NCBI RefSeq assembly: GCF_003334405.1
Contig: NZ_QOWM01000001.1
From: Escherichia coli
Lineage (GTDB): Bacteria; Pseudomonadota; Gammaproteobacteria; Enterobacterales; Enterobacteriaceae
Strand: one strand, 5' to 3'
Length of the DNA stretch: 64,000 nt
Under the pieces are notes generated by a model. That model was not told where the DNA came from. It worked only from the letters and a program-made list of their open reading frames with translations, and searched no databases. Below are positions 1-827 of the stretch, piece by piece (position 1 is the stretch's first letter; each line of letters starts with the position of its first letter). The translations under genes were made by a program, and so were the position numbers.

Positions 1-1
1 T

Positions 2-574
2 TATGCCGGTTGGGAGCATCAGAACGGTGCCTATGTTGATGGGGTGGTGAAAGTTGACCGTTTTGCCAACACCATCCATGGCAAGATGAGTAATGGGGCA
101 ACAGCGTTTGGCGATTACAATAGTAACGGCGCGGGTGCTCATGTTGAGAGCGGGTTCCGTTGGGTTGACGGATTGTGGAGTGTTAGACCCTATCTGGCCT
201 TTACCGGCTTTACCACAGATGGTCAGGACTACACGTTATCAAACGGCATGCGCGCGGATGTGGGAAATACCCGGATATTACGCGCTGAAGCGGGAACGGC
301 GGTAAGCTATCACATGGACCTGCAAAACGGTACGACGCTGGAACCCTGGCTGAAAGCGGCCGTGCGTCAGGAATACGCCGATTCTAACCAGGTGAAAGTT
401 AATGACGATGGCAAATTTAATAATGATGTGGCTGGAACCAGTGGCGTTTATCAGGCTGGTATAAGGTCATCGTTTACCCCGACGTTAAGCGGTCATTTGT
501 CAGTCAGCTATGGCAATGGCGCAGGGGTAGAATCGCCGTGGAATACTCAGGCGGGTGTGGTCTGGACGTTCTGA
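2..574 (+). CDS. yejO: Autotransporter C-terminal beta-barrel domain (YejO-like); 5' end lies outside the window
   Basis: Frame is open from the window edge; translation ends ...NTQAGVVWTF, the aromatic terminus typical of autotransporter barrels; sits next to proL as in E. coli. Confidence 0.7.
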   Translation, partial: YAGWEHQNGAYVDGVVKVDRFANTIHGKMSNGATAFGDYNSNGAGAHVESGFRWVDGLWSVRPYLAFTGFTTDGQDYTLSNGMRADVGNTRILRAEAGTAVSYHMDLQNGTTLEPWLKAAVRQEYADSNQVKVNDDGKFNNDVAGTSGVYQAGIRSSFTPTLSGHLSVSYGNGAGVESPWNTQAGVVWTF

Positions 575-632
575 TAACAGAAAATAAACAGGCTGTGATG
601 TGTCACGGTCTGTTTATCGAATTAATTGCAGA

Positions 633-668
633 TATAAAAAAACCAACCGTAAGGGTTGGTTTTTTCTT
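633..668. terminator. Bidirectional rho-independent terminator between yejO and proL
   Basis: A-run, stem aaccaacc / ggttggtt with loop gtaag, then T-run; serves both convergent transcripts. Confidence 0.7.
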
Positions 669-676
669 GGGATTTT

Positions 677-753
677 TGGTCGGCACGAGAGGATTTGAAC
701 CTCCGACCCCCGACACCCCATGACGGTGCGCTACCAGGCTGCGCTACGTGCCG
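677..753 (-). tRNA. proL: tRNA-Pro (anticodon GGG)
   Basis: Reverse complement reads cggcacgtagcgcagcctggtagcgcaccgtcatggggtgtcgggggtcggaggttcaaatcctctcgtgccgacca, with a GGG anticodon and CCA end. Confidence 0.95.
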
Positions 754-827
754 ACTCGTGGCTGCTAATACTACCGTTTTCCACACCGATTGCAAGTAAG
801 ATATTTCGCTAACTGATTTATAATTAA

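Follow-up and report, generated by a model that had tools for sequence, protein, structure and literature searches.

Does the junction between the autotransporter gene yejO and the tRNA-Pro gene proL, which opens this stretch of Escherichia coli DNA (64,000 nucleotides, here called the window; contig NZ_QOWM01000001.1 of assembly GCF_003334405.1), hold a mobile element, the scar of one, or the tail of a disrupted gene, or is it an ordinary part of the chromosome? We put at roughly 0.9 the probability that positions 1 to 760 are the native, uninterrupted, convergent yejO-proL junction of a phylogroup-A-like E. coli chromosome. The original prediction had placed the 3' end of yejO beside tRNA-Pro, with one bidirectional terminator shared between them, and had suspected that any insertion would lie upstream of the window. 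The barrel end, the tRNA gene, and the bidirectional hairpin are all there at the coordinates given, far past what chance would produce. The junction contains the following features.

2 to 574, plus strand: yejO 3' end, the last 190 codons and the TGA stop (reading frame, barrel profile matches, and identity to annotated yejO).
584 to 617, plus strand: hairpin A, a predicted stem of 15 bp closed by a UGUG loop, starting ten bases past the yejO stop (folding).
636 to 665, both strands: hairpin B, A7-CCAACC-GTAAG-GGTTGG-T6, a predicted symmetric bidirectional intrinsic terminator (folding).
669 to 724 (approximate), no strand: unoccupied core of a lambdoid bacterial attachment site (attB), ~55 nt, reaching from the anticodon loop to 8 nt past the tRNA 3' end (alignment of attB, the phage attachment site attP, and both prophage junctions).
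677 to 691, no strand: unoccupied attB core of phage-inducible chromosomal islands (PICIs), TGGTCGGCACGAGAG, the 3'-terminal 15 nt of proL (comparison with occupied genomes).
677 to 753, minus strand: proL, tRNA-Pro(GGG), 77 nt, CCA encoded (ARAGORN; Rfam RF00005; annotation in all matching genomes).

The yejO and proL genes

Positions 1 to 900 of the window are 100% identical to chromosomes annotated yejO, tRNA-Pro, and yejM, in a megablast comparison in which all 5,426 complete E. coli genomes matched, and it is on this identity that the tRNA gene of the window is named proL. ARAGORN places it at 677 to 753 on the minus strand, as the sole tRNA in the 64-kb window, and it scores 54.9 bits against Rfam RF00005 (E = 2e-10; gathering score, 29). 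The gene forms a cloverleaf whose anticodon is ggg, and CCA is encoded at its 3' end, which reads ...GCCGACCA; these features identify it as tRNA-Pro, and the prediction of such a gene beside yejO was thus correct. At a permissive threshold, Rfam reported nothing besides the tRNA in the window; the matches to HPnc0260 and RNAI (E ~0.9) lie far under the gathering scores and are treated as chance.

On the other side of the junction, a stop-free frame runs from position 2 to a TGA stop at 572 to 574. Its 190 amino acids match the autotransporter barrel model TIGR01414 over model positions 242 to 432 of 432 (E = 1.1e-49; 169.6 bits; cut-off, 16) and Pfam PF03797 over model positions 72 to 254 of 255 (E = 1.2e-28), and they cover the beta-barrel translocator domain over its C-terminal ~70%. 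The translation terminates in AGVVWTF, with the aromatic last residue that is the C-terminal signature of outer membrane proteins. The earlier reading of this frame as the yejO autotransporter, with only the barrel C terminus in view, is borne out.

Judged by its barrel profile match, YejO is a type Va (AIDA-I/Ag43-like) autotransporter, and it resembles the classical members of that type in this match and in the aromatic C-terminal residue. It scores, however, far under the equivalog cut-offs of Ag43, AIDA-I, and BafA, and so belongs to a subfamily of its own. Compared with complete type Va autotransporters, the window holds just the last 190 amino acids of YejO, the passenger and signal peptide region lying upstream; in intact relatives the full-length protein has 863 amino acids, with an Ag43/AIDA-like repeat passenger at residues ~81 to 559 and the barrel at residues 456 to 863.

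An unoccupied attachment site

The yejO stop and the 3' end of proL are 102 bp apart. With three mismatches allowed, a search of the 64 kb turned up the proL 3' segment a single time, the PICI core occurs once in the window, no direct repeats flanking the tRNA were found, and the G+C content is ordinary. The combination that marks an occupied island, an integrase beside the tRNA plus, at the far boundary, the tRNA 3' segment repeated in direct orientation, is absent from the window. Because the gap is so short, the proL 3' segment is single, and flanking repeats are lacking, the site must be empty; the attachment site in the window is unoccupied and scar-free.

In other E. coli genomes the tRNA gene does serve as an integration point, as had been proposed. 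A census was made in the 5,426 complete E. coli genomes with short queries spanning the junctions, a genome being counted if one place covered at least 80% of the query.

Window 600 to 760 (hairpins and proL) uninterrupted: 4,829 of 5,426 genomes.
Junction interrupted at the tRNA: ~597 of 5,426 genomes (~11%), by subtraction.
PICI-type integrase joined to proL: 450 of 5,426 genomes.
K-12 IS5 (insertion sequence 5) junction in yejO: 357 of 5,426 genomes.
Sequence type 131 (ST131)/B2-type deletion junction in yejO: 1,123 of 5,426 genomes.

At least 80% of window positions 1 to 900 was covered in 3,882 genomes; by approximate arithmetic, the full barrel end is retained in ~420 of the occupied genomes, and ~175 combine occupation with the B2-type deletion. 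Of the interrupted genomes, 450 are those with the PICI-type integrase, and others hold lambdoid prophages. The expectation that an insertion would lie upstream of the window did not hold, since elements directed to the tRNA enter at ~669 to 724, which is inside the window and between yejO and proL, and here that site is empty.

Could the junction nevertheless be a healed scar, left when a satellite or prophage at proL was excised, with hairpin B or the spacer at 575 to 676 as leftover mobile-element DNA? The site is heavily used, with ~11% of genomes occupied, and the integrating elements bear hairpin terminators of similar design, but the element-borne hairpins differ from hairpin B in stem sequence. 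No second att-like copy is present, and 4,829 of the 5,426 genomes, in all lineages sampled, keep the spacer, hairpin B included, unbroken and conserved. Spacer and hairpin B moreover stay on the yejO side beside islands, which makes the spacer native flank. We consider a healed scar extremely improbable, and the hypothesis was rejected on the lack of a second proL 3' copy and of flanking direct repeats and on the ordinary G+C content.

Hairpins between yejO and proL

The native junction contains two hairpins where a single shared terminator had been predicted. That prediction stood in so far as hairpin B folds with a U-run on both strands; it missed hairpin A, the stronger of the two. For hairpin A the folding energy is -19.5 kcal/mol (z = -5.8) on the plus strand versus -12.2 kcal/mol on the minus strand, and 0 of 200 shuffled sequences were as stable. 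It is stable on the yejO sense strand only, because two G-U pairs in its stem turn into C-A mismatches on the opposite strand. The sequence 3' of the stem is UUUAUCGAAUUAAUU. These properties suggest a yejO-specific 3' hairpin, acting as a weak terminator or a 3'-end stabiliser. In ST131/B2 genomes, whose yejO is a deleted pseudogene, hairpin A loses one stem pair in the predicted fold. The sense-strand-only stability and the pair lost where yejO is already dead could also be taken to mean that hairpin A is a dedicated RNA element of the yejO 3' end, for example a processed 3'-untranslated-region small RNA or a stability determinant, and that hairpin B serves mainly proL; we regard this as doubtful.

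Hairpin B folds almost equally well in both directions: the plus strand gives -15.4 kcal/mol (z = -3.7) and the minus strand -15.7 kcal/mol (z = -5.1), and for neither strand did any of 200 shuffled sequences do as well. Its 6-bp core includes four G-C pairs and is followed by a U-tract on each strand, U7 on the proL (minus) strand and U6-C-UU on the yejO (plus) strand, the sequence pattern of a bidirectional terminator. Across the lineages sampled, the stem is invariant, and the loop reads GTAAG, GTAAA, GTAAT, or GCAATA. The minus-strand U-run holds steady at 7 to 8 in these lineages while the plus-strand T-run varies from 4 to 8, which points to proL termination as the better-conserved role of hairpin B.

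Bidirectional terminators were reportedly found to be widespread in E. coli by Ju, Li and Liu in 2019, through full-length RNA profiling. Hairpin B is like the bidirectional intrinsic terminators of convergent genes in having an A-run, a G+C-containing stem, and a T-run, here between the convergent yejO and proL. It differs in that one partner is a tRNA gene, that the strand-specific hairpin A comes first on the yejO side, and that the function of hairpin B is a prediction.

State of yejO in the source genome

The prediction that yejO is disrupted in some lineages proved right, the gene being split by IS5 in 357 of the 5,426 genomes and reduced by ST131/B2-type deletions in 1,123. The insertion in K-12 is a 1,195-bp IS5 after nucleotide 66 of yejO, and yejO in K-12 is an IS5-inactivated pseudogene (PMC11005336, PMC11677980). 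The ST131/B2-type gene has two internal deletions, of ~1.0 kb and ~0.63 kb, the second of which stops 30 bp before the stop codon. The two IS5-junction matches listed are ER1709 (host unrecorded) and THN257 (a chicken isolate); we assume that the majority of the 357 genomes are K-12 laboratory derivatives.

No complete genome matches the window perfectly, and the state of the upstream part of yejO was for that reason read from the nearest relatives. The best matches to a 25-kb query, at 46,161 bits, are one mismatch under the perfect score, as calculated from a 900-base perfect match, and no K-12 strain is among the top 60 of them. Over 34 kb the window differs from K-12 GM4792 by 6 mismatches and a 21-bp indel and from P13-6 by 2 mismatches and 1 gap; over 50 kb the differences are 10 mismatches and the 21-bp indel for GM4792 and 5 mismatches and one 1-nt gap for P13-6, a pig isolate. 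A 281-bp deletion private to the window adds to both sets of differences. By these comparisons, the window is not K-12.

In five of the six nearest genomes (P13-6, ETEC1716, SHP24, NCTC9100, and NCTC9087), narP is followed by an intact 2,592-nt yejO (863 amino acids) and then by proL, and no insertion sequence or integrase is present at narP-yejO-proL in these five. The upstream yejO of the source genome is most likely an intact 863-amino-acid gene directly after narP, and, an intact yejO free of mobile DNA being the refuting condition attached to the original prediction, the disruption that had been suspected there is most likely refuted for this genome.

Alternatively, the source of the window could be a K-12-type genome whose yejO is split by IS5 after nucleotide 66, and the barrel end would then be the tail of a dead gene. 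Window positions 1 to 900 are 100% identical to the IS5-bearing locus of JCL301, with 2 differences in the first 9,900 positions, the IS5 junction is found in 357 genomes, and the pseudogene is documented (PMC11005336, PMC11677980). This origin is nonetheless unlikely: K-12 is missing from the 60 best 25-kb matches, GM4792 is farther than P13-6 over 34 kb (6 mismatches plus the 21-bp indel versus 2 mismatches plus 1 gap), and IS5 is absent from yejO in all six of the nearest genomes. Intact and IS5-split loci differ ~2.0 to 2.6 kb upstream of the window, where the former have a continuous yejO 5' end, GCGTTATATTCACCC, and the latter GCGTTAT-GGAAGGTGCG, the IS5 end.

With the locus of E. coli K-12 the window shares the genes yejO, proL, and yejM, their order, and their orientation, and positions 1 to 900 are 100% identical to K-12-like genomes, hairpins and proL included. 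In contrast to K-12, whose yejO is split by IS5, the nearest relatives of the window mostly carry an uninterrupted 863-amino-acid yejO (WP_000554226.1 in four).

Satellites and phages at proL in other strains

In four sampled genomes (AST198, strain 6629, THO-006, and WS1933D), a 9- to 12-kb element lies between yejO and proL, with its integrase ~210 to 220 bp from proL. The gene content of these satellites comprises an integrase, an AlpA-like regulator, Icd-like proteins, a primase or RepA helicase, a major-capsid-like protein, a head-decoration protein, and a small terminase subunit (TerS); the PHROG matches of the THO-006 element are to an integrase, an excisionase/regulator, a DNA primase, a major head protein, a head-decoration protein, and TerS. 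Under the SatelliteFinder criteria, a PICI has an integrase, an AlpA-like regulator, a primase or replicase, a capsid-like gene, and TerS and lacks tail, holin, portal, large terminase (TerL), and head-tail adaptor genes (PMC10085698). No portal, TerL, head-tail adaptor, tail, or lysis/holin gene is annotated in the four 9- to 12-kb elements examined, and by these criteria their gene content fits classical PICIs. The label of capsid-forming PICI (cfPICI), prompted by the capsid and head-decoration genes, was rejected on the absence of portal, TerL, and head-tail adaptor genes. Nissle 1917 is one of the 450 genomes with the integrase-proL junction and carries it at 100% identity.

Occupied genomes have an intact copy of TGGTCGGCACGAGAG in the rebuilt tRNA beside the integrase, and on the yejO side a degenerate core copy that is 2 to 4 nt short (TGGTC--CACGAGAG or TGG----CACGAGAG). 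The arrangement is that of tRNA attachment sites at which Campbell integration rebuilds the tRNA 3' end: elsewhere, the integrase adjoins the rebuilt proL, and the opposite end of the element is marked by a degenerate or displaced tRNA 3' fragment. Unlike the tRNA attachment sites of integrated PICI-type satellites and lambdoid phages, the window has an empty attB and no element. Papers found by searching for proL as a named integration site of islands were mostly irrelevant; the "proL" matches in PMC7545054 were to "proliferate" and "prolonged."

The PICI elements also carry several copies of the motif (A/T)TCCGGTG between the terminator hairpin and the att core, and more copies further in. 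The motifs lie on the island side of proL, at 32135 to 32293 in locus L003, 29292 to 29450 in locus L004, and ~19870 to 20002 in locus L006, and are plausibly arm-type integrase binding sites.

Lambdoid phages use a longer core at the same tRNA. VE-V11-M carries a 44-kb lambdoid prophage between two tRNA-Pro copies, and the ~55-nt core is what the window, a circular phage genome, and the two VE-V11-M prophage junctions share when aligned. The phages Flotzy, Eeyore, and Phi06_2987 S contain a segment that matches window positions 640 to 733 at 83 to 85% identity, and in Flotzy, the sole phage of the three that was checked, the integrase gene begins ~130 bp from the proL-like segment. In Shigella flexneri 1c, tRNA-Pro and yejO reportedly form the boundaries of the gtrIC cryptic prophage (PMC4924310). 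The 44.6-kb sequence NZ_CP148393.1, deposited as plasmid pZ1323HEC0010-3, has the appearance of a lambdoid phage genome in circular form: it carries tail fibre, Lom, DinI-like, integrase, yfdR, and ParA genes and a 58-nt proL-like attP. It may represent the prophage that VE-V11-M has at proL, either after excision or as a phage-plasmid.

The four satellites and the VE-V11-M prophage have a hairpin-plus-U-run terminator of their own just downstream of the rebuilt proL, and an equivalent hairpin is present in the circular phage attP. One such replacement terminator reads GCCCGCUAAUC-cuu-GAUUAGCGGG-U7, ~45 to 75 nt past the proL 3' end. The native hairpin B is left on the yejO side when elements are present.

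Proposed account of the junction

We propose that transcription of yejO would meet hairpin A (584 to 617) first and hairpin B (636 to 665) next, and that proL transcripts, started at a promoter of the gene's own on the other strand, would end at hairpin B and its U7. With both transcripts ending at hairpin B, this hairpin would be bidirectional, serving both genes, and its part in proL termination would be the better-conserved one. An integrating element would part proL from hairpin B and bring its own hairpin-plus-U-run terminator downstream of the rebuilt tRNA.

Several observations weigh against this account of an intact junction. A consensus terminator scan reported neither hairpin A nor hairpin B, which is why direct folding was used; we suspect that the A/T runs pair, lengthen the stem, and leave no T tail for the rule of the scan. 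Termination at either hairpin is proposed from sequence and folding only. The core stem of hairpin B is short, and its predicted stability owes much to A-U pairing between the flanking runs, which competes with the U-tail that a terminator needs. As regards the upstream gene, the sixth nearest genome, SCPM-O-B-12142, has a yejO annotated as frameshifted by 1 nt; no complete genome is a perfect match, so that the upstream yejO was read only in relatives; and an IS5-bearing K-12-like locus is very close, with 2 mismatches in 9.9 kb.

Neighbouring sequence and private differences

Upstream of proL lie the following features.

760 to 795, minus strand: candidate proL promoter, TTGCAA (795 to 790), a 16-nt spacer, TAGTAT (773 to 768), and a G+C-rich discriminator before 753 (sequence reading).
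828 to 2588, minus strand: yejM, the gene next after proL.

The candidate promoter fits 8 of 12 consensus positions, beneath the scan threshold of 9 of 12, and TTGCAA/TAGTAT is only tentatively assigned to proL. A near-perfect palindrome with 16-nt arms, TCGCTAACTGATTTAT-A-ATTAATCAGTTAGCGA, occupies positions 806 to 838, overlapping the yejM stop codon (828 to 830) and sitting 11 nt upstream of the putative proL -35 hexamer. Its folding energy is about -18 kcal/mol whichever strand is folded (z ~-5.7). Lacking a U-run, the palindrome does not qualify as a canonical terminator and may be a site for protein binding or a hairpin at the 3' end of yejM; part of it recurs in inverted form at 2835 to 2852, just upstream of yejL.

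Three differences from other genomes lie farther along the window. At the junction 33994 to 34009, between two copies of the direct repeat ACGGGCGCTG, 281 bp that are present in K-12 and P13-6 are missing. The loss removes the last ~22 codons of nupX, an intergenic spacer resembling repetitive extragenic palindromic (REP) sequence, and the 3' end of the convergent yeiI; the open reading frames at 32819 to 34138 (plus strand) and 33838 to 34983 (minus strand) consequently run on and overlap, with 439 and 381 amino acids. The best matches across the deletion in the 5,426 complete genomes are all two-piece, spanning 401 bp, and the deletion appears to be private to the source or an assembly artefact. 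Position 8530, between bcr and yejG, is A, versus G in all of the genomes compared (720632, JCL301, K-12 GM4792, and P13-6), and probably accounts for the single mismatch of the best 25-kb matches. Finally, rihB of K-12 GM4792, at 17303 to 18223 in locus L012, has a 21-bp deletion (921 nt, versus 942 nt in the window and P13-6), which falls at window position ~31783.

Significance

The yejO-proL junction is an already known, textbook locus of the E. coli core genome, and nothing at it is new in kind. The by-products of the analysis are a census, in 5,426 complete genomes, of four locus states (yejO intact, split by IS5, or shortened by internal deletion, and proL occupied), the placement of two att cores within proL, and the observation that the sampled integrating elements (four satellites, one lambdoid prophage, and one phage attP) all bring a replacement tRNA terminator. 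These leave current understanding unchanged and may help in annotating satellites and prophages at proL, for example those of Nissle 1917 and Shigella flexneri 1c.
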